A stretch of 64,000 nt of DNA from Eubacteriales bacterium (GTDB lineage: Bacteria; Bacillota; Clostridia; Lachnospirales; Lachnospiraceae), in assembly GCA_030537195.1 (NCBI GenBank), contig JAUNOK010000002.1, positions 21,632-85,631 on the forward strand, in the 5' to 3' direction. The notes beneath the pieces are model-generated. The model saw only the letters and a list, made by a program, of their open reading frames with translations, searched no databases and had not been told where the DNA came from. Made by a program: the position numbers and the translations under genes. This document shows positions 10,347 through 41,956 of this stretch, piece after piece; position 1 is the stretch's first letter; every line of letters begins with the position of its first letter.

Positions 10347-10474
10347 AATTTTCAAATTATTTTTAAAAAATCACACAAACCTATTGACATAGTAGGAATA
10401 AAGGTTTATATTATCATCAACATCAAGAAAGCAATACATTTTTTGAAATAAATTAAGAAGGATGGTAATTAACT

Positions 10475-11785
10475 ATGGCAAAGAAACCTTATTCAGAAAG
10501 AAATTTAAAGTTTGAAACATTACAGCTTCATGTAGGACAGGAACAGCCTGATCCAGTAACAGATGCTAGAGCAGTACCTATTTACCTTACATCATCATAT
10601 GTATTCCATAATAGCCAGCATGCTGCTGACAGATTTGGTCTTAAGGATGCAGGTAACATCTATGGACGTCTTACTAACCCAACAGAAGATGTATTCGAGA
10701 AGAGAATCGCAGCTCTTGAGGGTGGTGTAGCAGCACTTGCAGTTGGTTCTGGTGCAGCAGCTTTAGCTTATGCTTTCCAGGCACTTGCTCATGCAGGAGA
10801 TCACATCGTAGCAGCTAAGAACATCTACGGCGGAACATATAACCTTCTTGCCCACACACTTCCAGATTACGGAATTGAAGCTACATTCGTAGATCCTTTT
10901 GATTATGATGCTATCGAAGCAGCTATCAAGCCTAATACTAAGGCTGTTCAGATTGAGACACTTGGAAATCCTAATTCAGAAGTTGTTGATATCGAAAGAA
11001 TTGCTAAGATTGCACATGCACACAACATTCCACTTGTTGTTGATAACACATTCGCAACACCTTACCTTGTAAGACCTATCGAATATGGTGCTGATATCGT
11101 TGTTCATTCAGCTACTAAGTTCATCGGTGGTCACGGTACAACACTTGGTGGTGTAATCGTTGATAGTGGTAAGTTTGACTGGGTTGGAGCTGCTGATAAG
11201 TTCCCATGGCTTGTTGAACCAAATGTATCATATCACGGTGTAAGCTTTGCTAAGGATACAGCACCTGCTGCATTCGTTACATATATCAGAGCTATCCTTC
11301 TTCGTGATACAGGAGCTACAATTTCTCCAGTTCATTCATTCATCTTCCTTCAGGGACTTGAAACATTATCACTCAGAGTTGAGAGACATGTAGAGAACGC
11401 ATTAAAGGTTGTTCAGTACTTAAAGAATCAGCCATTAGTTGAGAAGGTAAATCATCCTTCAATCTCTACTAACGAGGAACAGCAGGCTCTTTATAAGAAA
11501 TACTTCCCTAACGGTGGTGGTTCAATCTTCACATTTGAAATCAAGGGCGGCGCTGCTGAAGCACAGAAGTTCATTGATAACCTTGAGTTATTCTCACTTC
11601 TTGCTAATGTTGCCGATGTTAAGTCATTAGCAATCCACCCAGCAAGCACAACTCACTCAGAGTGCAACGAAGCTGAGCTTCTTGACCAGGGAATTAAGCC
11701 TAACACAATCAGACTTTCAATTGGTACAGAGAATATTGATGATATCATTGAAGATCTTGATGAAGCATTCAAGGCTTTACAGTAA
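10475..11785 (+). CDS. metY: O-acetylhomoserine/O-acetylserine sulfhydrylase (Cys/Met metabolism PLP enzyme)
   Basis: KFETLQLHVGQE...YGRLTNPT...HSATKFIGGHGT. Confidence 0.85.
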   Translation: MAKKPYSERNLKFETLQLHVGQEQPDPVTDARAVPIYLTSSYVFHNSQHAADRFGLKDAGNIYGRLTNPTEDVFEKRIAALEGGVAALAVGSGAAALAYAFQALAHAGDHIVAAKNIYGGTYNLLAHTLPDYGIEATFVDPFDYDAIEAAIKPNTKAVQIETLGNPNSEVVDIERIAKIAHAHNIPLVVDNTFATPYLVRPIEYGADIVVHSATKFIGGHGTTLGGVIVDSGKFDWVGAADKFPWLVEPNVSYHGVSFAKDTAPAAFVTYIRAILLRDTGATISPVHSFIFLQGLETLSLRVERHVENALKVVQYLKNQPLVEKVNHPSISTNEEQQALYKKYFPNGGGSIFTFEIKGGAAEAQKFIDNLELFSLLANVADVKSLAIHPASTTHSECNEAELLDQGIKPNTIRLSIGTENIDDIIEDLDEAFKALQ

Positions 11786-11827
11786 TTTGCCATATATATC
11801 CTTTCCGGTATAATATATTTACATCAC

Positions 11828-11872
11828 AAAAGGGGACTGATATTAATTATCAGTCCCCTTTTGAATTAGATT
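11828..11872. terminator. Bidirectional rho-independent terminator
   Basis: aaaaggggactgata-ttaat-tatcagtcccctttt. Confidence 0.55.
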
Positions 11873-11899
11873 ATATTAATCAGCTTTTAATAGGTTATA

Positions 11900-12124
11900 T
11901 TATTTCTTTTTCTTAAAATGTACTTCCGGAACAGCTACACTATCATATGTCACATGTGTCTTATCGCTGTTCTCATCTGTAATCATATCAGAAGATATAT
12001 CAACATCGTCATCGTCGGAATCTCCCTTATGTATCTCTGGAATAGCCAGATTATCATATGACAGATTATAATCTTTCTTAGGAGTGTTACCTTTATTCTT
12101 AACTCTTTTAAATATATTAAACAT
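11900..12124 (-). CDS. Small acidic hypothetical protein (74 aa) with an internal repeat
   Basis: Start Met MFNIFKRV is preceded by RBS ggaggg. Repeated motif YDNLAIPEIHK / YDSVAVPEVHFK flanks a poly-Asp stretch. The longer track ORF overlaps gltS. Confidence 0.4.
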   Translation of the reverse strand: MFNIFKRVKNKGNTPKKDYNLSYDNLAIPEIHKGDSDDDDVDISSDMITDENSDKTHVTYDSVAVPEVHFKKKK

Positions 12125-12143
12125 AGCATTCCCTCCCCAATAA

Positions 12144-13337
12144 TTATAATATATTAATAAAGAATGTAATAACAAGACTGTTAAGGAAATCTGCAAAAAG
12201 GCTTCCTATAAGTGGAATAAGAAGATAAGCCTTAACTGACGGAACATATTTGTCACATACAGCCTGCATATTAGCCATGGCATTAGGAGTAGCACCCATA
12301 CCGAATCCGCAAGTTCCTGCAACAAGTACAGCCGCATCGTAATCTCTTCCCATAACATTGAATACAACAAAATAAGTAAATAAAACAATAACAATAACCT
12401 GTGCTCCAAGAAGTATAACAAGTGGAAAAGCAAGTGAAGCAAGCTGCCATAACTTAAGTGTAATCATCGCCATACCTAAGAACAATGATAAACAGATACC
12501 ACCAAGGTCATTGATTTCGCCCATGTGAATAACAAGCTTTCCATGACCTGCATATTCTGCAATATTACGCATAAGAGCAGCTGCAATCATGGCACCTATA
12601 TATATAGGAAAAGTAAGACCAGTCTTAGTAAGTGCCCATGAAAAGATTGTTCCTAAACCTATAGCAAGTATAAGCTGGAATACGGCTGAAGCATACATTC
12701 TTGAGTGTCTTTCATGCTTCTTCTCATCTTCAACAAGAAGGCTGTCATCCTCTGGAATAGCTGTAGATAAGAGATTCCTTTTTTCAATCAGTCTCTTACC
12801 CAATGGACCACCTACAAGACTTCCGAATATAAGTCCAAATGTAGCTGCGGCAGTACATATTGTCGTTGCACCCTGAACATTAAAATCTTCAAGTACCGGA
12901 CCAAATGCACCTGCTGTACCATGTCCACCGACCATAGGAATAGAACCTGTACACATACCTATAAGTGAATTAAGTCCAAGGACTTTAGACAAGCCAACTG
13001 CAACACAGTTCTGTGTAAATATAAGCACAATGACCAGTCCTAAGAATATAACCATTGACTTTCCGCCCTTCTTAAGTACCTTAAGATTAGCCTGGAAACC
13101 AACTGATGTAAAGAAGAATACCATGCATACTTCTTTAAGTGTGTCATCAAATGAGAATTCCAATATATGTGTTACATAACATATACATGTAAATATAGCA
13201 AATAACAGACCTCCGACAACCGGAGCTGGTATACAGAATCTTTCAAGGAATTTGATTTTCTTTCGTAAATAGCTGCCCAGAAGCAGTACAAGTACTGCGA
13301 TAGCAAGCGTCTGATACATATCTAACTGAACTTTCAT
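12144..13337 (-). CDS. gltS: Sodium/glutamate symporter GltS
   Basis: ESS-family membrane profile; N-terminus MKVQLDMYQTLAIAVLVLLLG. Confidence 0.85.
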   Translation of the reverse strand: MKVQLDMYQTLAIAVLVLLLGSYLRKKIKFLERFCIPAPVVGGLLFAIFTCICYVTHILEFSFDDTLKEVCMVFFFTSVGFQANLKVLKKGGKSMVIFLGLVIVLIFTQNCVAVGLSKVLGLNSLIGMCTGSIPMVGGHGTAGAFGPVLEDFNVQGATTICTAAATFGLIFGSLVGGPLGKRLIEKRNLLSTAIPEDDSLLVEDEKKHERHSRMYASAVFQLILAIGLGTIFSWALTKTGLTFPIYIGAMIAAALMRNIAEYAGHGKLVIHMGEINDLGGICLSLFLGMAMITLKLWQLASLAFPLVILLGAQVIVIVLFTYFVVFNVMGRDYDAAVLVAGTCGFGMGATPNAMANMQAVCDKYVPSVKAYLLIPLIGSLFADFLNSLVITFFINIL

Positions 13338-13383
13338 TAAATTTCTCCATTCTTTATTACATTAACCTGATATACAGAATTAA

Positions 13384-14343
13384 TTATTCTGTCAAAACTT
13401 TGATGCCATGCTCTGTATAATAAGCCGCCGCACCTGAATGAAATGGAATATCCACTCCACTGGATGCTTCATTAACATCGAATGTAATATCAAGAGAAGT
13501 AGCATACTTAAAGTCGTTAGTATGCTCGTATAAAGTCTTAGTCACATTCTTAATCACATCATCTGATAATGACTGCTTTGCAATCAGAACCGCTTTAACA
13601 CCTATTGTTGTAACATCAGCATCCTGTCCCTGATAAGTTCCTGCCGGAATAGTGTACTTTTCACAGAGGGAATATGCTGATAACATCTTATCAATACATT
13701 TGTCATCCAGACTTACAAGGCGTATATCACATTCTTTAGACAACTGATCAATAACTCCGGTTCTTGTTCCTGCAGTACAGAAAAATGCATCAATCTCTCC
13801 ATTCTTAAGTTTTTCTGCAGCTTCAGTATAATCCATATTAACCTTATTAATAAGCTCATCTGTAATGCCACTCATCTTTAATATCTGTTCTGCATTCTTC
13901 TCTGTACCTGATTCCGAAGCACCAACACTTACCGTCTTATTAATCAGATCATCAATACTTGTAATACCAGAATCTTTTCTTACAACAATCTGGCAACCTT
14001 CAGTATAAAGAGAAGCTACTGCTTTGTAGCCTTTCTGATACTTCTTATCAGCAAATGCTCCTGTTGCATTATAGGCATCACTTAACAGGTCTGCCTGAAC
14101 AATAGCAAGATCAATGTAGCCATCAGATATAAGTCTTAAATTGGCAACCGAACCAGCAGTAGTCGTAGTTTCAAATGTATATCCATCAATTTCTTTATCA
14201 GCAAGCTCTGTAAATGTGCTTGCAAACGAATAATACATTCCACCAATATCCGCTGCGCCAAATTTCAGGTTCTTACTATGTCCGCTGCAGCCTGCCATAA
14301 CAAACAACATACAGGACATTAATATACATAATATTTTCTTCAT
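13384..14343 (-). CDS. TRAP transporter solute receptor, TAXI family (lipoprotein), no adjacent permease
   Basis: Lipobox LFVMAGCSG. TAXI-like region TTTAGSVANLRLISDGYIDLAIVQADLL. Confidence 0.7.
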   Translation of the reverse strand: MKKILCILMSCMLFVMAGCSGHSKNLKFGAADIGGMYYSFASTFTELADKEIDGYTFETTTTAGSVANLRLISDGYIDLAIVQADLLSDAYNATGAFADKKYQKGYKAVASLYTEGCQIVVRKDSGITSIDDLINKTVSVGASESGTEKNAEQILKMSGITDELINKVNMDYTEAAEKLKNGEIDAFFCTAGTRTGVIDQLSKECDIRLVSLDDKCIDKMLSAYSLCEKYTIPAGTYQGQDADVTTIGVKAVLIAKQSLSDDVIKNVTKTLYEHTNDFKYATSLDITFDVNEASSGVDIPFHSGAAAYYTEHGIKVLTE

Positions 14344-14347
14344 TCAT

Positions 14348-15517
14348 TTATCCTCGTAATAATAATTCTTTCTCGTAAACTTTACCGTCCTTTATGTACA
14401 TTCTAGGAACACGCTTACTTACTGCACATGTAAGTTCGTATGGAATAGTTCCCGCAAGCTGTGCCATATGTTCAATGGGATTAGCTTTACCAAATATCTC
14501 AACTTCGCTTCCAACGTCCACGTTCATCTTGTCAGTAAGATCAATCATGCACATATCCATACATATCTTACCTCTCTGTGGAGCTGGTCCTTCCTCAGTC
14601 ATAAGTTCATATCTGTTAGAAAGACATCTGAAATATCCATCTGCATATCCATAAGGAACAACTCCCATTCTTGTCTTTCTCTCAGTCTTATATATTCCAC
14701 CATAACTTATTGCTGTTCCGGCAGGGTAAGTCTTAATTGTGCTTACAGTTGTCTTAAGAGACATAACAGGCTTAAGTCCAAGCTCCTGTGCGAAATCTCC
14801 ATAGCCATAGAGCAGAAGTCCCGGTCTTACCATATCAAGCCATGTTTCCGGATATCTTGCAACAGCACCAGTATTGGCACAGTGTCTTATCTTGAATTTC
14901 TTTCCAAGCTTTTCTTCAACCGCATCGATTACGCTTGTAAACAATTCAAACTGATGCTTTGTATAGGCTTCACATTCTTCTCCGAATTCATCAGATACAG
15001 CAAAATGTGTGAATATTCCCTCAGCATCAAGTCCCGGAAGCGAACATCCCTCACATATTCCTTCGACACCACTGTCAAAGTAATCACCATCACACAGATA
15101 TCCAAGTCTTGACATACCAGTATCAACCTTAATGTGAATCTTTAATGTACCGCCACATCTTACAGCTTCTTCACTGTATTCAAGTGCCTTGGCCTTACAT
15201 GTAACAGCCTGTGTTATATTATTCTTAATGAGCTGCTCAACCTCTTCCTTAGGAGTATGACCAAGTATAAGAATTGGCATTGTAATTGAATTATGTCTTA
15301 ATTCTATCGCTTCATCTATACTACTGACAGCAAGATAATCTGCTCCCAAATCCTGTAACAGTCTGCTCACCTGAACAGAACCATGTCCATAGGCATCAGC
15401 TTTAACTACACCTAAGAACTTAACGTTCTCTCCAATTCTTTTACGTAATGTTTCATAATTGTGTGCAAGTGCATCCATATCTATTTCAGCCCATGTTCTT
15501 CTTAATGTTGAATCCAT
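14348..15517 (-). CDS. alr: Alanine racemase
   Basis: PLP-lysine motif VVKADAYGHGSV. Confidence 0.9.
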   Translation of the reverse strand: MDSTLRRTWAEIDMDALAHNYETLRKRIGENVKFLGVVKADAYGHGSVQVSRLLQDLGADYLAVSSIDEAIELRHNSITMPILILGHTPKEEVEQLIKNNITQAVTCKAKALEYSEEAVRCGGTLKIHIKVDTGMSRLGYLCDGDYFDSGVEGICEGCSLPGLDAEGIFTHFAVSDEFGEECEAYTKHQFELFTSVIDAVEEKLGKKFKIRHCANTGAVARYPETWLDMVRPGLLLYGYGDFAQELGLKPVMSLKTTVSTIKTYPAGTAISYGGIYKTERKTRMGVVPYGYADGYFRCLSNRYELMTEEGPAPQRGKICMDMCMIDLTDKMNVDVGSEVEIFGKANPIEHMAQLAGTIPYELTCAVSKRVPRMYIKDGKVYEKELLLRG

Positions 15518-15662
15518 AATAATCTGCCTCCATTATCTAAACATACTTTGTTATTTTACCATTTAATTGATAAATAGTGAATAATTTTTAAATTAATTTT
15601 AGGTTGTCAATTTATGATATAATACATATAAATAGAAAGATGTATCAAAAGGAGAACTTACC

Positions 15663-16838
15663 ATGCATATATCAAAAAACTCAGCTACACATATTGTTGA
15701 AGAAATCTCCAAGCTCGTAAAACAGAATATTAACCTTATGGATGAAACCGGACATATTATTGCCAGCTGTGACAAATCAAGAATCGGTAACTTCCATTAT
15801 GGTGCATACAAGATTATATCTGAATGTCTTGATGAGTATATAATTGATGAAGATGATGCATCCAAGGGTATCAAAAAAGGAATCAATCTTCCGCTTGAAC
15901 TTGATGGTGAAATTGTAGGTGTTATCGGTATGACCGGAATGTATGATGAAGTTATCTCCTCAATCAAACTCGTTAAGAAAATGACTGAGATTCTTCTTAT
16001 GGAAAGCCGCGTCAGCTATCACCAGTTAATGGATAAGCGTGTGCGTAATGCATTTTTCGAAGAATGGCTTATTAACAGTGGGTACAAGAATACCGACGAG
16101 CTTGAGGACAGAGGTAAATCATTGGGTATTGATATCAATCGCCCAAGAAGAGTATTTATTGCAAGTATTGATGAACTTGATAATTACAAAGACTCCCAGG
16201 AAGGTCAGTCTAAGATTGCCAAATTCGAGAATGATGTTGCCGCATTTCTTAACCGTAATAACTGCAAGACACATTTTAGAAATGCATCAAGACAGATTAT
16301 TATTGTTGATGATAAGCCTACTGCTAATATCGTTGAATTTGCTAAAGAGCTTGCTGACTATATATGGAATAAAGAAAATGTTGAGTTAAATATAGGTATT
16401 GATGGCGGTTCAAGTGATGATATGCATATATCATATATTCAGGCACACAGAGCATGGAGTGCTGCAGCTACTGAACATGAACAGATAACCTGCTATGAGA
16501 ATATGAGTCTTGAACTTCTGCTCAGCAGCGTTCCAATGGAAGTGAAACTTGAATATCTCAAGAAAATATTCGGTAATTCTACTAATGAAGAGCTTGCTGA
16601 ACAGATATCGCTTCTTAAGGCATATTTTAATGCGCAGGGTTCTATCCAGACGGCAGCAGATAATCTGTATATTCACAAGAATACGCTGCAGTACAGAATT
16701 ACAAAGCTGAAAGAGCAGACTGGATACGATGTCAGAAAGCCATCTGAGTGTCCTGCACTCTTCCTCGCATACACTATTGCCGAAGAAATTGAGTCAGAAA
16801 ATTATGACTTAAATGTATTGTTACACAACACGAAATAA
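15663..16838 (+). CDS. cdaR: CdaR/SdaR-family sugar diacid regulator (PucR-type C-terminal HTH)
   Basis: C-terminus TAADNLYIHKNTLQYRITKLKEQTGYD; N-terminal diacid-recognition-like domain. tgatataat extended -10 at ~15612-15625. Confidence 0.8.
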   Translation: MHISKNSATHIVEEISKLVKQNINLMDETGHIIASCDKSRIGNFHYGAYKIISECLDEYIIDEDDASKGIKKGINLPLELDGEIVGVIGMTGMYDEVISSIKLVKKMTEILLMESRVSYHQLMDKRVRNAFFEEWLINSGYKNTDELEDRGKSLGIDINRPRRVFIASIDELDNYKDSQEGQSKIAKFENDVAAFLNRNNCKTHFRNASRQIIIVDDKPTANIVEFAKELADYIWNKENVELNIGIDGGSSDDMHISYIQAHRAWSAAATEHEQITCYENMSLELLLSSVPMEVKLEYLKKIFGNSTNEELAEQISLLKAYFNAQGSIQTAADNLYIHKNTLQYRITKLKEQTGYDVRKPSECPALFLAYTIAEEIESENYDLNVLLHNTK

Positions 16839-30345: not shown

Positions 30346-30887
30346 TATAACCGCATTTCATTCCCAGCCATCCCTTTTGGCATTCCTTATTTCAAACTGT
30401 TTTATTTAAAATCTATACCATCTTTAATAAAAAAAGATGGCTTCCAGTCTTAATCCTGCAATATAAAGCTTATTTATATTCTATCCCATTGCCATAATGA
30501 CGCTCTATGCCAGTGCATTTGATTTTCCATGGTACAAATATCTCCGAAAATTCATGCCTTATTTTGCATCTCCAGTTTCAATTAATCTTTGGGTAATCAT
30601 TCTTATGGATTCACGTATTCTTTTGCAGATATCCTCTTCAATAAGTGCACATCTGTAACCAATATTAGTTCCCGACAGCTTGTGATTTGCAAACATTGTA
30701 TTATAAAACGCTTACATTATTGCTGTCGATTTTGTTGATAATAATTGTTTATATTTATAAAATATGATAGAATACATATGTATTCATTATTTGTGTCAAA
30801 AAATACATATTTTGAAAAAGACCAAATTAAATTGACACATTCTTTAATAAACAAATTAACAGTTTAATAAATAAAAGAGGAAAGTTG

Positions 30888-31079
30888 ATGAGCGATATAT
30901 TAAGAATCGAAGCAAAGAAATATGTAGAAGAATCAATAGTTATATCTTCCAGAATTCCAAAGGACATGTTGCAAGATATAGATTTTGTCGCAAAGAAATC
31001 GGGAAGAACACGAAACGAGGTTGTAACTATGTTTTTAGAATATTCATTAAAACATACAGAAATAATTAACAAACAGTAA
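30888..31079 (+). CDS. Ribbon-helix-helix (CopG/Arc-type) DNA-binding protein, first gene of the TIR cassette
   Basis: RIPKDMLQDIDFVAKKSGRTRNEVVTMFLEYSL has the RHH beta-strand + two-helix pattern. RBS aagagg lies 7 nt upstream. Confidence 0.6.
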   Translation: MSDILRIEAKKYVEESIVISSRIPKDMLQDIDFVAKKSGRTRNEVVTMFLEYSLKHTEIINKQ

Positions 31080-31099: not shown

Positions 31100-32902
31100 A
31101 TGGGAAAGTTTGCGATTGAATGTCCGGTTTGCGGAAAATATGCGGAAGCAAGTACAGGATTTTTTTCCAAAAAGAAAATTGAATGTGCATGTGGAAATGT
31201 AATTAATGTTAGAACTGATAAGTATGCATCAAGAAAATGCGTACATTGTGGCAATCAGGTAATTTTCGATCAAACGAAGGGGGAAGATGCTTTATGTCCG
31301 GTTTGCCATGCAAAGATAAATACCATGGCAGACAATCAAAAGACACAGGAGTTTTCATGCGGACAGTGTGGCATTCGTTTGACAACGGTTACAAGTGCAA
31401 AAACATATGTGTGTCCGATATGCGATTTCGAAAATGATATTCAGGAACGCTTTATGTCAGAAAAAATTAAGAATGATGGTATGGCAAGCATCATAAAGTA
31501 TGAGGGAGATAATTCGACATTCATATGGAAGCATCCAATTGAGGATTTCAATTATGGTTCTCAGCTCATTGTTCATGAGAGTCAGGAAGCAATCTTCTTT
31601 AAGGATGGACAGGCATTAGATTTATTTGGACCAGGTCGTTATACATTAGAGACACAACAACTTCCATTGTTGGAAAAGACATATAGTTTGCCAACTGATA
31701 CCCAGAGAACATTTCATTCAGAGGTTTATTTTATAAATAAAACAGTTCAGATGGCTATTAAGTGGGGAACTCCAGATAAGGTTAGATTCATTGACCCGTT
31801 AACAGGAACACCCCTTGCTCTTGGAGCATCTGGTGAGATGAATATTCAAGTTTCTAATGCAAGAAAGCTTTTAATTAAGTTGGTTGGAACTATGAAAGGG
31901 ATTTCATGGGAAGAAGATCCCGAATTTACGAAATCCTTACAGTCATCATTCCGTCCGTTGATTGTAAACGCGGTAAAGACAAACCTTTCAGCAGTAATAA
32001 AAAATGAAGCAATCGATATTTTAGAGATAGATGAAAAACTGGATATAATCTCTGACAATTTACGTGAAAAAATATTGCCGGGATTAGAAGAATATGGTCT
32101 TACAGTACCTCAGTTTTATGTAACAAATATTGTTTTGCCAGAAGATGACCCTAACTTTAAGAGAATTAGGGAATTACATACAATCACACTTCAGACAAGA
32201 GTAATACAAGCGGAAGCAACCGTAAAAACAGTGCAGGCTCAGGCTCAGACTCAATACAGAATGGCAGAGGAGCAGAGCAAAGCCGCAATTGAAGCTGCTC
32301 ATAGAGAGGCTGAATTGCAACGTCAGACAACCGAAACTGAAATTGCGAAGATGAAAGCAGAGAGGGAGCTTATTGCGGCACAGGCAGCAGCACAGGCGAA
32401 ACGCATGGATGGTATTACTGAAGCTGAGATTATGCAGGCAAAGGGATACAATCAAAAGGATGTCCTTCAGGTAGATGTACAGAAGGCATATGCGGAAGCT
32501 ATCGGAAATATGGGACCAGCTATTTCCTCTGGTGGTGGAAGCGGCATAGTAGGTGATATGCTTGGCTTGGGGGTTGGAATGGCAGCTATGAATGCAGTAG
32601 CACCGCAGGTAGGCGGAATGATAAGTGGAATGGGAAACCAGATGAATCAGGCTATGAATAATGGTACAACTTTGCCATCATTTGCTGAACAGCAGACTAT
32701 GAATACAAATATAACTAGGGCAGTCAATGCTTCGAACACATGGGATTGTAAATGTGGCAATAGAGGAGTGATTGGCAATTTCTGTAATAACTGCGGAGCT
32801 AAGAAACCAGAGCCAGTATCAGCAACATGGGATTGTTCTTGTGGAAATAAGGGAATAATAGGAAACTTCTGCAATAACTGTGGTGCGAAGAGAGGAGAAT
32901 AA
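31100..32902 (+). CDS. Multi-zinc-ribbon protein fused to an SPFH/Band-7 domain (COG4260, B. subtilis YdjI-like) with coiled coil and tandem C-terminal zinc ribbons
   Basis: Five N-terminal CxxC...CxC/CxxC pairs. SPFH core (IIKYEGDNSTFIWKHPIEDFNYGSQLIVHESQEAIFF...AIKWGTP). QAQAQ coiled coil. Two repeats WDCxCGNxGxIGNFCNNCGAK. Confidence 0.75.
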   Translation: MGKFAIECPVCGKYAEASTGFFSKKKIECACGNVINVRTDKYASRKCVHCGNQVIFDQTKGEDALCPVCHAKINTMADNQKTQEFSCGQCGIRLTTVTSAKTYVCPICDFENDIQERFMSEKIKNDGMASIIKYEGDNSTFIWKHPIEDFNYGSQLIVHESQEAIFFKDGQALDLFGPGRYTLETQQLPLLEKTYSLPTDTQRTFHSEVYFINKTVQMAIKWGTPDKVRFIDPLTGTPLALGASGEMNIQVSNARKLLIKLVGTMKGISWEEDPEFTKSLQSSFRPLIVNAVKTNLSAVIKNEAIDILEIDEKLDIISDNLREKILPGLEEYGLTVPQFYVTNIVLPEDDPNFKRIRELHTITLQTRVIQAEATVKTVQAQAQTQYRMAEEQSKAAIEAAHREAELQRQTTETEIAKMKAERELIAAQAAAQAKRMDGITEAEIMQAKGYNQKDVLQVDVQKAYAEAIGNMGPAISSGGGSGIVGDMLGLGVGMAAMNAVAPQVGGMISGMGNQMNQAMNNGTTLPSFAEQQTMNTNITRAVNASNTWDCKCGNRGVIGNFCNNCGAKKPEPVSATWDCSCGNKGIIGNFCNNCGAKRGE

Positions 32903-32904
32903 AT

Positions 32905-33594
32905 ATGGGGCAAAATAATATTAGAGGATACATTGTTGATGCAATATTATTTGTTGTGTTTAGCGTCATTGCTTTTGCGGCACCATTTAAAATGACTGGA
33001 GTATTTTGGTTAGGATATATATTTGGTGTAATTGCAATAGTGTCACAAATATATTTTATAAAGATATCTTTTTTGAATGGTAAAGATGTAAAGAGTAAGT
33101 TTTATGGATTTCCTATAGCAAAGATAGGAGTGTTCTATCTTGGAATACAAGTTGGTTTGAGTTTGGCAGAATTTATTACTGCTGGATTCCTGCCAGTCTG
33201 GATAGCACTTATTGTTAATACGCTTATGATAGCATTTGCTGCGATTGGTACAATAGCTGCAGATGTAATGCGTAATGAAATTGTAAAGCAGGATGTTCAG
33301 ATAAAAATGAATGTAAAAAATATCCGTGCATTACAGTCTCAGACGGTTTCGTTTGTAGATATGTGCCAAGATGCGGATATAAAGAAGCAGTTGCAAGGGT
33401 TGGCAGATGATTTTAAATATAGTGATCCGGTATCATCGGAAGATACTCAAGAAATGGAAACAGAACTGAAATTCCTTGTAAACGAAATCCAGCGAGCACT
33501 TGTAGATGGGGATATGAAATCTGTTGAAAGCTTTTGTGTACGTGTGAAAGCTAGCTTGGCAGAGAGAAACAGAATTTGCAAGTTGGCGAAGTAG
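32905..33594 (+). CDS. Membrane protein with four N-terminal TM helices and ~100-aa cytoplasmic helical tail, translationally coupled to the SPFH gene
   Basis: Hydrophobic segments at about residues 10-30, 35-55, 70-95, 100-125. Stop/start are 2 nt from the upstream gene. No family recognised. Confidence 0.55.
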   Translation: MGQNNIRGYIVDAILFVVFSVIAFAAPFKMTGVFWLGYIFGVIAIVSQIYFIKISFLNGKDVKSKFYGFPIAKIGVFYLGIQVGLSLAEFITAGFLPVWIALIVNTLMIAFAAIGTIAADVMRNEIVKQDVQIKMNVKNIRALQSQTVSFVDMCQDADIKKQLQGLADDFKYSDPVSSEDTQEMETELKFLVNEIQRALVDGDMKSVESFCVRVKASLAERNRICKLAK

Positions 33595-33612: not shown

Positions 33613-34300
33613 AAAAATGCACTTGAAGAGATTAATAGTTTTTATAATGATGATCTGGTATGTAAATTAAAAAAGGCAGAGTATTTTGATAAAATTGCAG
33701 GAAGCAGAAAACTGGCAAAAGTGTATTACGATATCGAAAATAAAGTGGCCTTTTCCGGTGCAATAAATGAAAATATAACCATAATGCTTGATGAGGCAAA
33801 TAATAAGCAAAAAGAGGTATTTAACATACAGGCAGCAGATACAGGAAGTTTTTCAGAAGTTAAGGATATAATTGCGGTGATAGGGATTACAAAAGAGGCA
33901 GGAAGCTCTCTTATGAATGTTTTGCTATTTGCTGCAACTGCAATCGGAATTATCGGCACTGACGTTGTGAGGGATGAAGTACAGCATAAGGAAGTGAAAA
34001 TTGAGATAAACACAAGTAGCATGATGAAAATGCGAAATATGGTTGAAACATTGGTGGAAAGTGCTCAGATTCAGAAGCCAGAAGGGCTGTGCAGGAATTG
34101 GCAGCGGAGTTTAAGTTTAGTGATCCGGTGAGTAATGATGGTTTAAAAATTATTGAGATAGAAATAGAAAATTCAATGGAATAACTTCAAAAATGTGTTT
34201 TTAGTGACAATACAGAAGAAGTTATAGAAATGACCAAGAGGACAGTTGCATTGTTAATTGAAAGAAATCAGCAATGTAAACAGTATAAGAAAATATAATG
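33613..34300 (+). pseudogene. Decayed tandem partial duplicate of the 3' two-thirds of gene 32905..33594 (frameshifts and stops)
   Basis: LLFAATAIGIIGTDVVRDEVQHKEVKIEIN parallels LMIAFAAIGTIAADVMRNEIVKQDVQIKMN. After a frameshift, AVQELAAEFKFSDPVS parallels LQGLADDFKYSDPVS. The final segment ALLIERNQQCKQYKK parallels ASLAERNRICKLAK. Confidence 0.55.
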
Positions 34301-34309
34301 AGGTTACTT

Positions 34310-34951
34310 ATGGATAAAGGAATTGTTAGAGAAGTCCTTGAGAGAGGAAAGTACGAGATAGTATTAGAAAAAAGATTTAAAAAATACGCTTGGCGGTTCA
34401 AATTAAGTAATGGAACATCAGTGTACTGTGGAGATAATGAAAAAGTATGGACACAGGGAAAAGCTGGAGTCGATGTAAAACGGTTTCTTGATTTGAATTT
34501 ACCTATCATGTCTAACAATAAAGTTTTTATAGTATATGGGCATGATACAGCTGCGAAAGATGAACTTGTTCACATGCTGCACACTTGGGGAATTGATGCT
34601 TTAGCTATTGATGCCTTGCCTACACAGGGACGTACTATTATCGAACAATTGGAGCATTATATTCCGCAGACAAATTATGGGGTAGTATTGGCTACACCAG
34701 ATGACATTGCTTGTTCTAAAGAGAATCGCACTGTGATGCAGTGCAGGGCACGACAAAATGTTGTACTAGAATTAGGAATGCTTTTGTCAAAGTTAGGAAG
34801 GTCTCGCGTTGCGATTTTGATGAAGGAATGTGAAAATTTTGAAATTCCATCAGATATTGATGGAATTCTTTATATTAGATTTTCCAATTCTGTAACAGAA
34901 GCGGAGAACAGTTTAAAAAGAGAATTGAATTCACATGGATATAATATTTAG
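34310..34951 (+). CDS. TIR-like nucleotide-binding domain protein (COG4271 / CAP12-PycTIR-type TIR-like) with ~70-aa N-terminal domain of unknown function
   Basis: KVFIVYGHD...GRTIIEQLE...GVVLATPDD...ARQNVVLELGMLLSKLGRSRVAILMK...IPSDIDGILYI matches the conserved pattern of this TIR-like family. Start at ATG 34310 after RBS tgagg. Confidence 0.7.
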   Translation: MDKGIVREVLERGKYEIVLEKRFKKYAWRFKLSNGTSVYCGDNEKVWTQGKAGVDVKRFLDLNLPIMSNNKVFIVYGHDTAAKDELVHMLHTWGIDALAIDALPTQGRTIIEQLEHYIPQTNYGVVLATPDDIACSKENRTVMQCRARQNVVLELGMLLSKLGRSRVAILMKECENFEIPSDIDGILYIRFSNSVTEAENSLKRELNSHGYNI

Positions 34952-34975
34952 TAATAATACGAGGGGAGAAGAAAA

Positions 34976-37351
34976 ATGACAATCTTTAGATGCAAAATGT
35001 GTGGCGGTGATTTGGAAATTGCAGAAGGAATTTCTTTCTGCACCTGTGAGTTTTGTGGTACAAAGCAGACAATTCCAACTGTAAAAGATGAAGATCTGCA
35101 GACATTGTTTAACAGGGCTAATGTTCTGCGTATGAAGTCTGAGTTTGATAAGGCGGCAGAGATATATGAAAAGATTCTGTTAAAAAATGAAAGTGAAGCA
35201 GAGGCATACTGGGGATTGATACTCTGTAAGTACGGAATAGAGTATGTGGAGGATCCGGCTACATTCAAGCGCGTGCCTACTTGTCATAGAGCTTCTTATG
35301 ATCCAGTGGTGTCTGATGAAGATTATAAGAGTGCGCTAAATTATGCTGATGCGGTTCAGCGAAACATTTATAAACAGCAAGCTGCTGAAATTGACACAAT
35401 ACAGAAAGGCATTTTAGCACTTGCGCAAAAGGAAGATCCCTACGATATTTTTATCTGCTACAAAGAAACAGATGAATTAGGACAGAGAACACAGGACAGT
35501 GCGATTGCCAATGATATCTATCATCAGTTGACTATAGAAGGCTTTAAGGTGTTCTATGCGGCAATTACGCTGGAAGATAAGCTTGGCACAGAGTATGAGC
35601 CATATATCTTTTCTGCCTTAAATACAGCAAAAGTTATGCTTTCTATAGGCACAAAACCGGAATACTTCAATGCTGTATGGGTTAAAAACGAGTGGTCCAG
35701 ATTCTTGAAAATCATGAAAAAGGATCGTAGTAAACTTCTTATTCCTTGCTATCGCGAAATGGATCCTTATGAGCTTCCAGAGGAGTTCGCCCATCTGCAG
35801 GCACAAGATATGAGTAAGATCGGATTTATCAATGACATTGTGCGTGGTATCAAGAAGGTGATCACCAAAGATTCGCCTAAAACACAGAGTCAGGAAACTG
35901 TAGTTGTACAGCAGGGCGGTTCCGGAACAACCGTAAATGCGCAAATAAAGCGTGGTAATATGGCTCTTGAGGATTGCGATTGGGATAGGGCAGAAAGCTT
36001 TTTTGAAGAGGCGTTAAATCTTGATCCAGAATGTGCAGAGGCGTATCTTGGTCTTTATATGGTAGAACAAGAATTGCCATATATGTTGGATGTACAAGAC
36101 TCATATATATATGATGATGATTATTTTACACATCATCGCTATTGGAAACGCGTGAAACAGTATGCTACAGGAAACCTTGCTAAAACACTAAATAAATGGG
36201 ATCGCATGCGAAGTGCACGACTTCAAAGAGAAAAGGATGATGAGTTTAGAAAAAAGGATGCTGAGCGCAGAGAAGCGGAACAGAAAAAGAAGATAGCTGA
36301 AGATGATAGAAAGAAAAAACTGGAAGTGATTAGACCATTGCAAGAGCAATTGCGAGAAATTGCTGAAGAGGAACGGGAAGAGCTGGAAAAGTTGAATGCG
36401 AATGCAAAAGCGGCATTGGAAATCCTTCAGAATGCGAAGTCGCATGAAAAAACAGAGGTTCAGGAATTTCACAAGTTGGAAGAATTGATTTCATCAAAAA
36501 AAGCAGAGCTATTAGAAATGGGATTTTTAAAGCGAAAAGAAAAGAAAGAATTAAAATCACAAATTGAAAACCTTAGTGAAAATTTATTGAAAGCAAAAAA
36601 TAAAGTTTCCGAAGCAGACGCTAGTATTATTCGATTGAAAAATCAAGCAGAGAAAGCCGAGAAACATATTAAGGAATACAGTGAAAAAGTTGTGAATGGT
36701 AAAAAGAAAAAGATTTTGGAGCAGATATTCAGAATTTTAGAGCTAGATTTTGACGGAGATAAGGTTAAATTTGGTTCTTATAAGAAAGGAGAGGAGGAAA
36801 AAGAACCAATTGAATGGCTTGTATTGGAAATATCGGATAAAGGGATTTTTTTGCTTGCTAAACATATAATTGATACAAAAAAATACCATAATAAGATGGA
36901 TGGCTCTATAACATGGGAGACATGTGACTTGCGGAAGTGGTTGAATAGTGAATTTCTGAATTCAGCATTTGATGATAGTCAGCGAATGATGATTGCACAT
37001 ACGAAGTGTCATACTGATGATAATCCGATGTATGAAACCGAAGGAGGAAATGATACGAAAGATCAGATTTTTCTTCTTAGTATAGATGAAGTAGAGAAGT
37101 ATTTTCCTTCAGATAGTGATATTGAAGAAAAGTTAGAAAACTACGGTTTTGGTAGAAGCCGGTGGTGGCTGCGCTCCCCTGGCGAAAGTAGCAATTACGC
37201 TGCGGGTGTTTATGATGACGGCTCGGTCGACTACGATGGCTGCGAGGTCAACTACCAGCTTAAAAGCGGCTGGGAGGAAGACTATAGTGACCCGGTTTAC
37301 TATATTTATGATTGTGTGCGTCCCGCTTTGTGGATTAATCTGGAATCATGA
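34976..37351 (+). CDS. 791-aa multidomain protein: N-terminal zinc ribbon, TPR-like repeats, TIR domain, long charged coiled coil, C-terminal DUF6273-like domain
   Basis: CKMCGG...CTCEFCG. TIR core DIFICYKETDE...KVFYAAITLE...SALNTAKVMLSIGT...WVKNEWSRF. KEKKELK-type charged helix. C-terminus IEWLVLE...TWETCDLRKWLNSEFLNSAF...WWLRSPG...CVRPALWINL typical of DUF6273. RBS gagggga lies upstream. Confidence 0.75.
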   Translation: MTIFRCKMCGGDLEIAEGISFCTCEFCGTKQTIPTVKDEDLQTLFNRANVLRMKSEFDKAAEIYEKILLKNESEAEAYWGLILCKYGIEYVEDPATFKRVPTCHRASYDPVVSDEDYKSALNYADAVQRNIYKQQAAEIDTIQKGILALAQKEDPYDIFICYKETDELGQRTQDSAIANDIYHQLTIEGFKVFYAAITLEDKLGTEYEPYIFSALNTAKVMLSIGTKPEYFNAVWVKNEWSRFLKIMKKDRSKLLIPCYREMDPYELPEEFAHLQAQDMSKIGFINDIVRGIKKVITKDSPKTQSQETVVVQQGGSGTTVNAQIKRGNMALEDCDWDRAESFFEEALNLDPECAEAYLGLYMVEQELPYMLDVQDSYIYDDDYFTHHRYWKRVKQYATGNLAKTLNKWDRMRSARLQREKDDEFRKKDAERREAEQKKKIAEDDRKKKLEVIRPLQEQLREIAEEEREELEKLNANAKAALEILQNAKSHEKTEVQEFHKLEELISSKKAELLEMGFLKRKEKKELKSQIENLSENLLKAKNKVSEADASIIRLKNQAEKAEKHIKEYSEKVVNGKKKKILEQIFRILELDFDGDKVKFGSYKKGEEEKEPIEWLVLEISDKGIFLLAKHIIDTKKYHNKMDGSITWETCDLRKWLNSEFLNSAFDDSQRMMIAHTKCHTDDNPMYETEGGNDTKDQIFLLSIDEVEKYFPSDSDIEEKLENYGFGRSRWWLRSPGESSNYAAGVYDDGSVDYDGCEVNYQLKSGWEEDYSDPVYYIYDCVRPALWINLES

Positions 37352-38669
37352 TTCTTTATATCTGAAATCAACCACTCAGCGCCATAGGTGCAATCCTTCT
37401 TCCAAGGGGAAGGTGGCACGCGGTAGCGTGACGGATGGGGAACTTTAAGCCACCGACAGGCGGTCAAGTGAAGTTTTTACTATGTGTTCTCCATTATCCT
37501 AAATATGTGATATCAGGGGATATTAATTTAATTTGTGATGAGGTAGGTAATTTGAGTAATTATGTATGGTGTGAATAGTCATGGAACGAAGATAAAGAAT
37601 TAAAGGTCGTAAACAAGGCTAAAGATTTGTGTTCCTATGTTATGAATGTAGAAAAGAAATCTCCCAAAGTATTATCGTTATACATTTGTGAGCCATTTAC
37701 AGAATTTATCATTGTCGGTGATTGAAACATATTATCCGGGCAAATGATGTTTTGCCCAAAAGGGTGATACCATCACGATGGAGAACGATGCATTTTACCT
37801 AAACAGTACGAACTGATAGAGCCATCCAGATAATGGATTGTCAGAACTTGCTTGGTGCTTGGATGAAAAGTGAGAGGAAGAGATTACAACCGTAGGGCTT
37901 AATCAGGGAATTTGATTGAATGGGTAGTCAGCTGGTGGTGGTTGTAATCCCTGTTTTTATATTGACAGGTTGCAAAACGAATTTACCTTTCAAAACAGTA
38001 AAACACAGATAAGTAGTTGCCTTTAACATGAAGCTGTGAGAATATAATTATAGTTATTTGTTTTATATTTTAATTCCTATGTAGGAGTTTGGTTGATTTC
38101 TCTTTAAGATGTTAAGAGAAAACGGAAGAGTCGTGTCTTCAGAGTTATTTGTAATATTCATATAAATGATTGTGAAGACACGGCATGAGCTGCCGCGAGC
38201 AGTAACCGGTATGCCAGTGGGCAAAAATGGACGTGAAGTGTGAAAACACAAATAAAATGGTGGAGAGGGCAGTAAGATGAGTTGCGAATCATCGAGCTGC
38301 TTTTTTCGTTGCAAAGTTTCTAAATGTCGGAACATAAATATATCCCCGACAAACCAATAACTTCTCCCCGCTAAAATTTCTCAAAAGCTGAAATCTGATA
38401 TAATAATTTTAGTTAGATAAAAATGGAGTAACGAATGATTGAAAAAGTTGTATTCATGAACATGTCTGCAGACCATAACGGAAGATGGAATAATTGCAAA
38501 AATACAATAAAAAGTCCTGTCTATGTATATCAAGCAACAGGAGCAATGAAAGCGTTTCAAAACTACAGAACAGCAATTAATGAATAACAGAACCACGCAA
38601 AATGTATATTTTAATCACTTCGCTAAATCACCGTTTAACGAAGTGATTACCACATGACATAGTCTACTA

Positions 38670-40581: not shown

Positions 40582-41956
40582 ATGCTTCGTTGTTGTAGGA
40601 TTTACATTGTTTTTATCAGAATTCTGTAAAATCCGTATATCCAAATGGCTGTATTTTGTAGAACATATTGTTTCATTTGTGATTATGTATCTTATATTTA
40701 CAACACAGCAGAATCATATATTTTACAGAGATATGCGTATAGTTAATTCTGCGCCACACTCACGTCTTGTTCTTGAATATGGCCCGGGTTTTTATTTCTT
40801 CTTCTGCTATCTTGGTATATTGACTATTGGAACTATCTTGGTGTTTATTAAATCAATGAAAAAAACTACAGCTCTTGGAAAAGCAAGAATCAGACTGATT
40901 ATATATGCCCTTGCCTGTCCATGGATTCCGCTTATTATCCGTGCATCCGGCATTACAGGAGGATATGAAGTATCATTTCTTGGAGTTGCTGCAAGCTCAA
41001 TACTGATTATGACAGCACTTGTAAAATATGGCTATCTTGATTCTGTACAACTTGCCGGAACTAATGCCCTTTTCAATGCAGATGAAGGCCTTATGGTAAT
41101 TGATACTAATAACCAGATTCTTTACTGTAATAAGCGCTTGAACGAATGGTTCCCTGCTGCTGAAAAATACAGTGATGCAACTGACTATATTAATATTAAC
41201 GATGTTCAGCATGGCAATTTCCTAAGGGTCGAATTAGGCGGCTGCATATGTGACATTATTTCAGAGCCAATAATAGAGATGAATGAAATTCAGGGTTATC
41301 TTATTCGTATTATAGACATGACTGAACATTACCAACAGCTTGAACTCGCTGAGAAATCCGCACATATTGATGCATTAACTGGTCTTTGGGATCGTGAATT
41401 ATTCAAACTTACAATGATGGACTATCTTAAGAATAATGGTAATGGAACAATGTTCATGATGGATATTGATAATTTCAAAGGAATTAATGATAACCACGGT
41501 CATGATACCGGAGACAAGGTTCTTATAACGCTTGGTAAGACTCTTACACAAATATGCAATGAAACACACCTGTGCTGTAGAATCGGCGGCGATGAATTTG
41601 GATTATTTCTGAAAGATATTACTACATCAGATGAAATCAGAGAGTACTCTGAGACAATAAGTAACCTATATAAGAAGCTTATTTCAGAAACTGATTCTTA
41701 TGTTAATTCATCTATATCCATCGGTGGAACAATAATTAACAACGAATCTCATAATATAACCATTGATTCATTTGAAGAAATATACTGTAAAGCTGATGAA
41801 GCTATGTATGCTGCTAAGAAAGGCGGTAAAGACAGATATTTTGTGAATAAACTATCAAAAATAAAAATCCGTAACTGCTATTATGTTAAATGCATAGCAG
41901 CTACGGATTTTTATTTTTCAATTATTTCTGATGTGATTTCTTCTCTCTTTTTATAA
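40433..41956 (+). CDS. Membrane-sensor diguanylate cyclase (GGDEF domain)
   Basis: About 6 TM helices at the N-terminus. GGDEF core ALTGLWDRE...MFMMDIDNFKGINDNHGHDTGD...RIGGDEFGLFL. Confidence 0.75.
   Translation: MFQQRPSKAQTGSILFGCATIIYMYGFLLEVTTTTLSGVYQAVKVEYFGECFVVVGFTLFLSEFCKIRISKWLYFVEHIVSFVIMYLIFTTQQNHIFYRDMRIVNSAPHSRLVLEYGPGFYFFFCYLGILTIGTILVFIKSMKKTTALGKARIRLIIYALACPWIPLIIRASGITGGYEVSFLGVAASSILIMTALVKYGYLDSVQLAGTNALFNADEGLMVIDTNNQILYCNKRLNEWFPAAEKYSDATDYININDVQHGNFLRVELGGCICDIISEPIIEMNEIQGYLIRIIDMTEHYQQLELAEKSAHIDALTGLWDRELFKLTMMDYLKNNGNGTMFMMDIDNFKGINDNHGHDTGDKVLITLGKTLTQICNETHLCCRIGGDEFGLFLKDITTSDEIREYSETISNLYKKLISETDSYVNSSISIGGTIINNESHNITIDSFEEIYCKADEAMYAAKKGGKDRYFVNKLSKIKIRNCYYVKCIAATDFYFSIISDVISSLFL

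Follow-up and report, generated by a model that had tools for sequence, protein, structure and literature searches.

Gene and Domain Organisation

The stretch of DNA analysed here (the window; 64,000 nt) belongs to an Eubacteriales bacterium of the Lachnospiraceae (assembly GCA_030537195.1, contig JAUNOK010000002.1, positions 21,632 to 85,631 of the forward strand). It carries a gene for a 791-aa protein that joins a TIR domain to a DUF6273 domain (Table 1). The 3′ part of this gene is the former variable region (VR) of a diversity-generating retroelement (DGR), the remains of which lie downstream of the stop codon, and in related genes the corresponding region is targeted by DGRs.

Table 1. 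Features of the 791-aa gene and its surroundings (coordinates are those of the window; TR, template repeat; TM, transmembrane).
Feature	Coordinates	Strand	Basis or remarks
64-aa ribbon-helix-helix-like ORF, possible operon regulator	30885..31079	+	Arc-like Pfam match, E=0.005, below cutoff
600-aa multi-zinc-ribbon SPFH protein (MDO5338764.1)	31100..32902	+	Pfam Band_7_1, E=3.1e-36
229-aa protein (TM229), 4 predicted TM helices, helical C-terminal domain	32905..33594	+	No Pfam family
Frameshifted remnant of a second TM229-like gene	33721..34289	+	tblastn of TM229 aa 154-229
217-aa CAP12/Pycsar-type TIR protein	34298..34951	+	CAP12-PCTIR_TIR, E=9.8e-34; PADLOC PDC-S35 (PDLC05006), E=2.5e-68
791-aa Zn-ribbon-TPR-TIR-TPR-helical stalk-DUF6273 protein	34976..37351	+	ORF, Pfam, AlphaFold2, homologues
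Signalling head, aa 1-365 (CxxC...CxxC ribbon, TPR, GIEYV..PTCHR hairpin, TIR, TPR)	34976..36070	+	Conserved across family
TIR domain, aa 156-295	35441..35860	+	TIR_2, Foldseek, flax L6 alignment; codon of putative catalytic Glu239 at 35690-35692
Helical stalk, aa 399-587	36170..36736	+	AlphaFold2 helices; occupies the place of the TM helix of most relatives
DUF6273, C-type-lectin-fold binding domain, aa 591-788	36746..37339	+	
Former DGR VR, aa 730-786 (WWLRSPG...VRPALW)	37163..37333	+	Codon-level alignment to L008/L045 VR/TR
Non-coding hairpin element, about 120 nt, after VR and stop codon	37352..37475	+	Conserved across DGR-linked loci and L001
avd pseudogene	37585..37892	+	tblastn with Avd of L008, L045 and L054, E=2e-19
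TR stub, 22 nt (AGCTGGTGGTGGTTGTAATCCC)	37930..37951	+	Direct repeat with VR start, 37157-37178

The gene starts with ATG, is preceded by a Shine-Dalgarno sequence (GAGGGGAG) about 8 nt upstream, and runs intact through 791 codons. Its product is identical to NCBI entry MDO5338768.1, labelled 'MAG: DUF6273 domain-containing protein [Eubacteriales bacterium]' (MAG, metagenome-assembled genome). A chance origin of the ORF is excluded because it has full-length homologues with E-values down to 0, and the gene is intact and probably expressed. A promoter scan was uninformative (27 sites, with 29 expected).

An initial annotation of this gene, made from the sequence alone, had described a zinc ribbon, a TIR core between TPR-like repeats, a long charged coiled coil and a C-terminal DUF6273 domain. 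This domain order was borne out by Pfam and by an AlphaFold2 model (built on an alignment of 38 homologues; mean pLDDT, the model's confidence score, of 82), and every motif it quoted is found at the expected residues: DIFICYKETDE (starting at residue 157), WVKNEWSRF (235), KEKKELK (521), EKAEKHIKE (559), IEWLVLE (612), WWLRSPG (730) and RPALWINL (782). The two domains on which it depended are both above their Pfam cutoffs, TIR_2 at aa 158-280 (E=7.8e-11, 43 bits, cutoff 28) and DUF6273 at aa 624-788 (E=1.6e-27, 96.9 bits, cutoff 23.5), and TPR_1/TPR_2 matches lie on either side of the TIR domain (aa 43-71 and 322-352). In the model, a four-stranded zinc ribbon (strands within aa 2-32) is followed by TPR helices (39-85), an alpha/beta TIR domain (158-295), a disordered linker (299-317), more TPR helices (320-396), two very long helices (399-514 and 520-587) that make up the predicted helical region of about 190 aa, and a globular C-terminal domain (591-788). 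The four cysteines of the CxxC...CxxC ribbon (C6, C9, C24 and C27) are invariant or near-invariant among homologues. Also near-invariant is a beta-hairpin (GIEYVxDPxT...PTCHR; aa 87-105, nt 35234-35290) between the first TPR block and the TIR domain. Residues C84, C103 and H104 around this hairpin are conserved and could represent a second metal or interaction site. The N-terminus does not resemble a signal peptide, as had been noted, and the protein has no hydrophobic or TM segment (best 19-residue Kyte-Doolittle mean 1.15, compared to about 3 in TM-bearing relatives).

The TIR part of the model matches the TIR domains of RPS4, MyD88, TRIF and SPARTA in Foldseek (probability 1.0, TMt 0.24-0.71). 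Fold comparison was used because a PDB sequence search with the 791-aa protein was uninformative, returning only TPR matches and one IgA-peptidase DUF6273-like domain. The presence of a TIR glutamate on alignment had been set as a test of the initial annotation, and such a residue is found: in a phmmer comparison with the flax L6/L7 TIR, E239 (within WVKNEW) falls on the glutamate of WCLMEL, which we take to be the catalytic residue of the plant TIR. This alignment is weak (E=0.068 over 113 residues), and E239 is invariant in 38 of 38 homologues. No NTPase domain (NACHT/nSTAND/AAA+) or MoxR-vWA partner was detected by Pfam or NCBIfam in the protein or its flanking genes. Thoeris profiles (ThsB, ThsA) gave no match, and the adjoining genes encode the SPFH protein, a TM protein, a PCTIR protein and a CN hydrolase.

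DGR Targeting of Related Genes

Classic DGR variable proteins are TvpA, Mtd and TaqVP. Complete or nearly complete DGRs were found next to several genes related to that of the window. In L008, an Eubacteriales MAG, the sequence 3′ of the TIR-DUF6273 gene (10001-12571) contains an Avd-like gene (12676-13089; closest Pfam match bAvd, E=9e-10, slightly below the gathering cutoff), a TR (13117-13243) that is a 127-nt repeat of the 3′ end of the gene, and a reverse transcriptase (RT) gene (13368-14477; RVT_1, E=4.7e-22). Sixteen of the 17 mismatches between VR and TR fall on TR adenines. Locus L045 is arranged likewise, and here TR adenines account for 19 of 20 mismatches; Avd and RT genes are also present in L054. 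In all three loci the RVT_1 match is above its cutoff, and the bAvd and 23S_rRNA_IVP matches are below their gathering cutoffs.

These three genome loci with an intact DGR are all of the TM-bearing type (see below). A soluble example is provided by L086, a metagenomic contig (ENA ERZ27234663 k141_56575) with Avd (14177-14560), TR (14601-14727) and RT (14958-15988) genes; Avd is intact and the RT is split over two reading frames. This single cassette matches two TIR-DUF6273 genes lying 4.6 kb apart. One product (P0006) is TM-bearing, with 18 of 24 mismatches on TR adenines. The other (P0003) is TM-less, has the same helical stalk as the window protein, to which it is 51% identical over the full length, and shows 17 of 21 mismatches on TR adenines, indicating that DGRs also target the soluble subfamily of which the window protein is a member. 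The island of L086 (1-16000) also carries DUF4869, nSTAND3-like and AAA genes, and a second RVT_1 fragment.

The imprint of this process is visible across the family. When 110 family proteins were compared from WWLRSPG to VRPALW, scaffold columns of less than 1 bit were seen to alternate with about 18 columns at 3.0-3.8 bits. In most of the hypervariable columns, K, E, Q, M and W together make up at most 9% of residues, compared to 20-70% in variable columns just upstream of the VR, a pattern characteristic of mutagenesis at the adenines of AAY template codons. Two other loci carry RT fragments directly 3′ of the TIR-DUF6273 gene and no intact cassette (L087, 8224-8811; L011, 11117-11290), so that decay of DGRs beside these genes appears to be recurrent.

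A Fossil DGR and a Frozen Variable Region in the Window

The 791-aa stop codon is followed by 1.3 kb without ORFs, and it is here that the remnants of a DGR are located. The initial annotation had named the DUF6273 domain correctly, and had overlooked both its link to C-type lectins and DGRs and the decayed cassette just 3′ of the gene. The avd pseudogene consists of three pieces in three frames (37585-37668, 37664-37783 with a stop codon, and 37821-37892) with an internal deletion, and ends in ...CQNLLGAWMKSERKRLQP, as do intact Avd proteins. The TR stub aligns to the start of the L008 and L045 TRs, where the similarity stops. Repeat search, pairwise alignment and blastn of the VR against the 64 kb recovered only this 22-nt stub as cognate TR, and no RT was found in the window by tblastn with three DGR RTs (best E=0.15). 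A live DGR in the window was therefore rejected; fossils only were found. Locus L001 has no counterpart of 37476-37956, and homology restarts at 37957, so that decay has gone one step further in L001.

The window VR aligns codon by codon with the VR/TR pairs of L008 and L045. It contains a 54-nt lineage-specific insertion, common to L001, that forms a low-confidence loop in the model and leaves the scaffold strands of DUF6273 intact (pLDDT 88.7). This insertion confounds alignment of the whole VR, and the test for adenine bias was restricted to the unambiguous first 95 nt. Over this interval the window VR differs from three TRs, all heterologous, at 45-50% of adenine positions and 17-29% of other positions (Fisher p=0.005-0.04).

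If the DGR is dead, then the VR might be expected to be static. Seven distinct variants of the 791-aa protein occur on at least 16 contigs, and the six sisters of the window copy share one identical VR, from which that of the window differs by A742V, V758A and D770G only, all at scaffold or insertion positions. Diversification of the VR was not seen among the seven variants. The window VR is frozen, as expected of a dead DGR, and the window protein is best called a former DGR target: it carries its C-terminal variable region on a C-type-lectin fold, as DGR variable proteins do, and its TR, RT and ongoing diversification are gone.

The same decay could have overtaken the receptor gene itself, leaving the window copy inert after loss of the DGR (and of the TM helix, relative to most of its kin) and heading towards a pseudogene. 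The avd pseudogene, the TR stub, the missing RT, the gene-free 1.3 kb, a TM229-like pseudogene nearby and the insertion inside the VR would all fit such a relic. However, the ORF is unbroken over its 791 codons and is preceded by a good ribosome-binding site, its head is identical to that of a relative with a different tail, and the seven near-identical variants keep the frame and show few, scattered substitutions. The position of the insertion in a loop, with the scaffold strands preserved, also speaks against decay, and live DGRs still act on TM-less relatives, for example P0003. We consider it very unlikely that the window copy is a decaying relic.

Family Size, Topology and Exchange of Tails

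The initial annotation regarded the architecture as unusual, and this did not hold. A database search gave at least 8,000 matches. The best 120 all have E<1e-199, and TIR_2 occurs together with DUF6273 in nearly all of them. When a single genome of each species was scanned with a pattern, at least 592 loci were confirmed, almost all in Clostridia, with families that include Oscillospiraceae, Lachnospiraceae, Ruminococcaceae and Acutalibacteraceae. With the head alone (aa 1-365), phmmer found 4,178 representatives of 50%-identity clusters at E<=1e-30; the best 150 of these are 436-1,591 aa long, with heads 56-78% identical to the query. Those ranked highest are 60-78% identical in the head and differ in their C-terminal halves. 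The heads are conserved and the tails diverge across the family.

The family is cellular, and not phage-borne, since only 3 loci were found among the 2.9 million viral contigs of IMG/VR, and tblastn matches in 50,697 phage records span just 17-19% of the query, inside the DUF6273 part. A phage origin was rejected on these results.

In 97 of the 120 best matches the second TPR block and the C-terminal domain are separated by a strong TM helix. It is preceded by a Lys/Arg cluster (for example, KRAKRNIK-IAIVTMSIVCVVLAVVLLINSVII-PNGKYN in L008), which by the positive-inside rule places the TIR head in the cytoplasm and the variable lectin domain outside the cell in these TM-bearing relatives. The window protein belongs to a TM-less minority with a charged helical stalk, together with those of L001, L012 and L075, P0003, P0013 and others. 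The proposal that it is a cytoplasmic sensor-effector is a reasonable reading of the window copy, which has neither TM nor signal sequence, and applies to this minority subfamily only.

The same head is also found on BspA-type leucine-rich repeat (LRR_5) tails (L023, L036 and L044) and on RCC1 propeller tails (L019, L030, L041, L047 and L071), in both cases mostly via a TM helix, and some proteins with this head end in C-terminal domains without a family assignment. A junction between head and tail can be seen by comparing the window with L001, its closest relative (89% aa identity). The head of the window protein is 100% identical, as protein, to that of a relative with a different tail. Over 34899-36098, the window and L001 agree at about 99.7% of nucleotides; identity then falls to about 93%, and to about 83% in the VR, with a sharp mosaic boundary at window nt ~36099 (L001 ~3416), the end of the conserved head. 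This drop points to recombinational exchange of tails together with a fast-evolving VR. The family thus consists of modular TIR receptors of Clostridia, with a conserved head, a TM helix or stalk, and an exchangeable binding domain.

Neighbouring Genes

Upstream of the 791-aa gene, and on the same strand, lie genes for a ribbon-helix-helix-like protein, an SPFH protein, TM229 and a second, smaller TIR protein (Table 1). The initial annotation had recommended a check of co-occurrence with the upstream genes. The outcome was divided, in that the SPFH and 4-TM proteins are conserved neighbours and the 217-aa TIR is no conserved partner. In 55 of 79 genome loci, one or both of the SPFH and TM229 genes occur within 10 kb of the TIR gene and on its strand; 43 of the 79 have both. 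The usual order is SPFH-TM229-TIR or TIR-SPFH-TM229, independent of the type of C-terminal domain, and TM229 is most often the middle gene. In 17 other loci a homologue of the 64-aa ribbon-helix-helix-like ORF immediately precedes SPFH or the TIR gene. No defence-system model covers the module formed by this ORF, SPFH and TM229.

In the window, the TM229-like remnant and the 217-aa TIR gene stand between TM229 and the 791-aa gene. Residues 154-229 of TM229 match 34062-34289, in a frame other than that of ORF 33721-34131, and the same remnant is present in L001 and L002. The block from this remnant to about 38386 is common to L001 and L002, where it is surrounded by ParE/Phd toxin-antitoxin genes, an integrase and a UvrD-like helicase. 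The remnant suggests that the block with the two TIR genes was inserted through recombination within TM229 genes.

The two TIR genes are separated by 25 bp on the same strand and have moved jointly, at 95-98% identity, to another genomic context in L001 and L002, and so may be thought of as a two-component system in which one protein senses, or makes a nucleotide signal, and the other executes. Such a pair is hard to reconcile with the distribution of the smaller gene, which is linked to a 791-aa-type gene in L001-L003 only and is missing from all 79 genome loci and from L083-L087. In addition, the 217-aa TIR matches the single-gene candidate PDC-S35, a profile that does not match the 791-aa protein, and it has no recognisable nucleotide-binding sensor domain. 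No domain is assigned to its first ~70 residues. A two-component pair is accordingly judged very unlikely. The 217-aa TIR was rejected as an obligate partner, and its confinement to L001-L003 is read as that of an independent defence-island passenger or a lineage-specific add-on.

Proposed Function

Any account of the function of the 791-aa protein must accommodate its folds and conserved glutamate, the DGR targeting of homologues, the DGR decay and VR stasis in the window, and the modularity and synteny of the family, all of which are directly supported. The account that we favour, as being on balance probable, is ligand-triggered TIR NADase immunity by a modular receptor that is diversified by DGRs in relatives and is of fixed specificity here. 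From established TIR biology we infer the ligand, activation by oligomerisation and the NADase chemistry. The immune role is proposed because of the hypermutation, the pattern of conserved heads and swapped tails, the mobility and mosaic make-up of the block, and neighbours of defence type. The most likely role is directed against phages or other invaders, with a chance close to even.

Enzymatic TIRs need to self-associate to form their active site, and the domain arrangement suggests how this might be brought about. In relatives with an adjacent Avd-TR-RT cassette, about 18 codons of the ligand-binding face of DUF6273 are rewritten by adenine-specific mutagenic retrohoming; in the window, decay of the cassette would have left a receptor with one fixed specificity. 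A ligand (a macromolecule from a phage or another foreign source is the most plausible) would bind the variable face of the lectin fold in the cytoplasm, and binding may cluster or re-orient the helical stalks (in the TM forms, receptors may cluster in the membrane). The TIR domains would then meet and create a composite active site, and Glu239-dependent cleavage of NAD+, or synthesis of a signalling nucleotide, would arrest the infected cell. The SPFH and 4-TM neighbours would probably act at the membrane, either as a scaffold for the receptor or as a restraint on it.

Several observations weigh against this immune receptor. The strongest conserved linkage of the family is to SPFH and a membrane protein, and in Bacillus such a pair serves envelope stress. 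DUF6273, LRR_5 and RCC1 are domains typical of surface proteins or adhesion, are extracellular in most relatives, and fit the sensing of environmental cues or host glycans equally well. PADLOC and NCBIfam profiles returned only coiled-coil noise for the 791-aa protein (LmuB, Rad50 and SMC, E>0.02). An intact adjacent DGR is present in 3 of at least 32 DUF6273-type genome loci, so that most members work without local hypermutation. The adenine bias of the window VR, measured on heterologous TRs, is of moderate significance only. Finally, the window copy is missing both the TM helix and the DGR and carries the 54-nt insertion in its VR, which together cloud its competence for ligand binding.

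The first three of these points, in particular, would suit the main rival, a non-immune receptor for envelope or environmental cues (glycans, host mucus, neighbour cells) that acts with the SPFH/4-TM pair in the manner of YdjGHI/SamGHI, its TIR being a scaffold or a source of regulatory second messenger. The frequency of the pair (55 of 79 loci), the TM helix that puts DUF6273, LRR or RCC1 outside the cell in 97 of the 120 best matches, and the lack of a defence-model match for the 791-aa protein are all consistent with it, as is the survey of Roux et al., in which the majority of DGR targets in cellular genomes were found to be anchored in the membrane and to bind substrates outside the cell (PMC8144416). 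On the other hand, the putative catalytic glutamate is invariant, and TIRs that are scaffolds only do not need it. The related block is mosaic and mobile, and lies among toxin-antitoxin, integrase and PDC-S35 genes; conserved heads, swapped tails and hypermutation are typical of conflict systems; and the resemblance to YdjGHI is an analogy only. A purely non-immune function is, in our judgement, unlikely.

The immune receptor can also be framed more broadly, as a class of NTPase-independent, DGR-programmable TIR receptors in which a hypermutable lectin domain, outside the cell in the TM forms and in the cytosol in the window protein, directly gates a TIR NADase, SPFH and the 4-TM protein provide the scaffold, and LRR or RCC1 tails are hard-wired alternatives; the window VR would then have been fixed, after loss of the DGR, for a useful specificity. 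This wider proposal is possible, and we offer it tentatively. The initial annotation, which supposed that the C-terminal domain recognises a phage or self ligand that activates the TIR, is confirmed in its observations and partly supported in its interpretation, the part that holds being a sensor-effector with an intact catalytic-type TIR.

Comparison with Known Systems

DGR-diversified lectin sensors joined to TIR or peptidase effectors have been described previously. They occur in cyanobacteria, purple sulphur bacteria (Chromatiales) and similar groups, where lectin sensors with conflict effectors, occasionally TIR, are read as antigen sensors of multicellular bacteria and are always centred on an NTPase (STAND/NACHT, MoxR-vWA) (Dore et al. 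2024, PMC10907252; Kaur et al. 2020, PMC7159879; for multidomain variable proteins of cyanobacteria, PMC7517822). The present family resembles them in having a hypermutable C-type lectin and a conflict-type effector domain, and the underlying idea, a DGR that would tune an immune sensor, is shared. It differs in that it has no NTPase, the sensor and TIR being linked by one TM helix or a coiled coil, and in its alternative LRR and RCC1 tails, its SPFH and 4-TM partners, and its hosts, which are unicellular gut Clostridia. The text of PMC10907252 does not mention Firmicutes, Clostridia, SPFH or a zinc ribbon, and the global DGR survey (PMC8144416) does not mention TIR. No description of the present family was found in literature on combinations of DUF6273, TIR, DGR and SPFH, in a search that was incomplete for subscription papers. 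Compared to the variable proteins of phage and other DGRs, this family is cellular and places its variable domain on a cytoplasmic TIR head, rather than on a tail fibre, Ig domains or a lipoprotein anchor, and the window copy has lost its TR and RT.

With Thoeris ThsB, SPARTA TIR-APAZ, CBASS Cap12 and Pycsar PycTIR it shares the TIR fold, a glutamate at the catalytic position and a sensor fused to the TIR. Unlike these, it has no ThsA, Argonaute, SAVED or cNMP partner and no PADLOC match to ThsB or TIR effectors; its sensor is a hypervariable domain of lectin fold, and its NADase activity is putative. A likeness to animal Toll-like receptors, by analogy only, is seen in the TM paralogues that have an extracellular LRR_5 (L023, L036) or lectin domain, one TM helix and a cytoplasmic TIR. 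Their orientation is N-in/C-out, however, BspA-type LRR differ from those of Toll-like receptors, and the window protein has no TM helix. No shared ancestry of the architecture as a whole is implied.

In Bacillus, the SPFH and membrane-protein pair of YdjGHI/SamGHI functions in the signalling of envelope stress rather than in immunity (PMC8581546; bioRxiv 10.64898/2026.02.06.704340). The SPFH protein of the window is similar in layout to B. subtilis YdjI/SamI, a lead from the literature that is to be read as an analogy. In contrast to YdjG-YdjH-YdjI, no PspA gene is nearby, and TM229 has no TPM domain or other Pfam match.

The purpose of DGRs in cellular genomes is largely unknown, and the sole immune role proposed is for the NTPase-based systems of multicellular bacteria. 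The present family is very large (at least 4,178 head clusters) and gut-dwelling, and its hypermutated lectin is wired to a TIR with a catalytic-type glutamate, making NAD+ cleavage an easily assayed candidate output. It also supplies natural controls: members with an active DGR, members with a dead one (the window), forms with and without a TM helix, and the same head joined to LRR or RCC1 tails. Whether targeted hypermutation tunes a bacterial immune receptor becomes a testable question, and the answer would reach beyond the multicellular lineages. If the wider proposal made above is correct, unicellular gut Clostridia would possess receptors that follow Toll-like receptor logic and have an 'adaptive' variable region. 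For annotation, DUF6273 should be described as a DGR-type C-type-lectin variable domain, and current defence-finder models miss the SPFH-TM-TIR triad, a candidate system for defence or signalling.

Non-Coding Element Downstream of the VR

The conserved element that follows the VR and stop codon begins with a GCGCC-NNN-GGYGC hairpin, after which come 2-3 hairpins, often with GNRA-like loops, whose stem sequences differ between loci while their arrangement is the same. Corresponding elements lie at 12572-12680 in L008, 12593-12700 in L045, 5820-5955 in L054, and 7818-7940 and 12395-12520 in L086. The element is kept between loci with proteins just 40-60% identical, and it persists in the window and L001 despite the dead DGR. 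The 3′ end of the VR, which is IMH-like (IMH, initiation of mutagenic homing), and the GC hairpin are conserved across loci, the stem of the window having one G-T pair. RNAalifold recovered only the first hairpin, the others being misaligned by MAFFT; they are seen in single-sequence folds, with modest z-scores (-0.8 to -3.65). This is probably a DGR target-recognition or cis element, or a transcript element.

Searches of Rfam returned nothing relevant for 28-42 kb of the window or for L008, L045 and L086, and the post-VR element has no match there. A mir-549 match at 41857-41918 is almost certainly spurious: it scores 38 bits against a gathering cutoff of 93, and its position is the 3′ end of a bacterial GGDEF gene. 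The cumulative GC skew of the window rises from about 24 kb, peaks at about 38-42 kb and then falls. The peak coincides with a switch from mostly plus- to mostly minus-strand genes at the gene-free region of the DGR remnants, and could reflect the change in gene orientation only, or a replication-related landmark.

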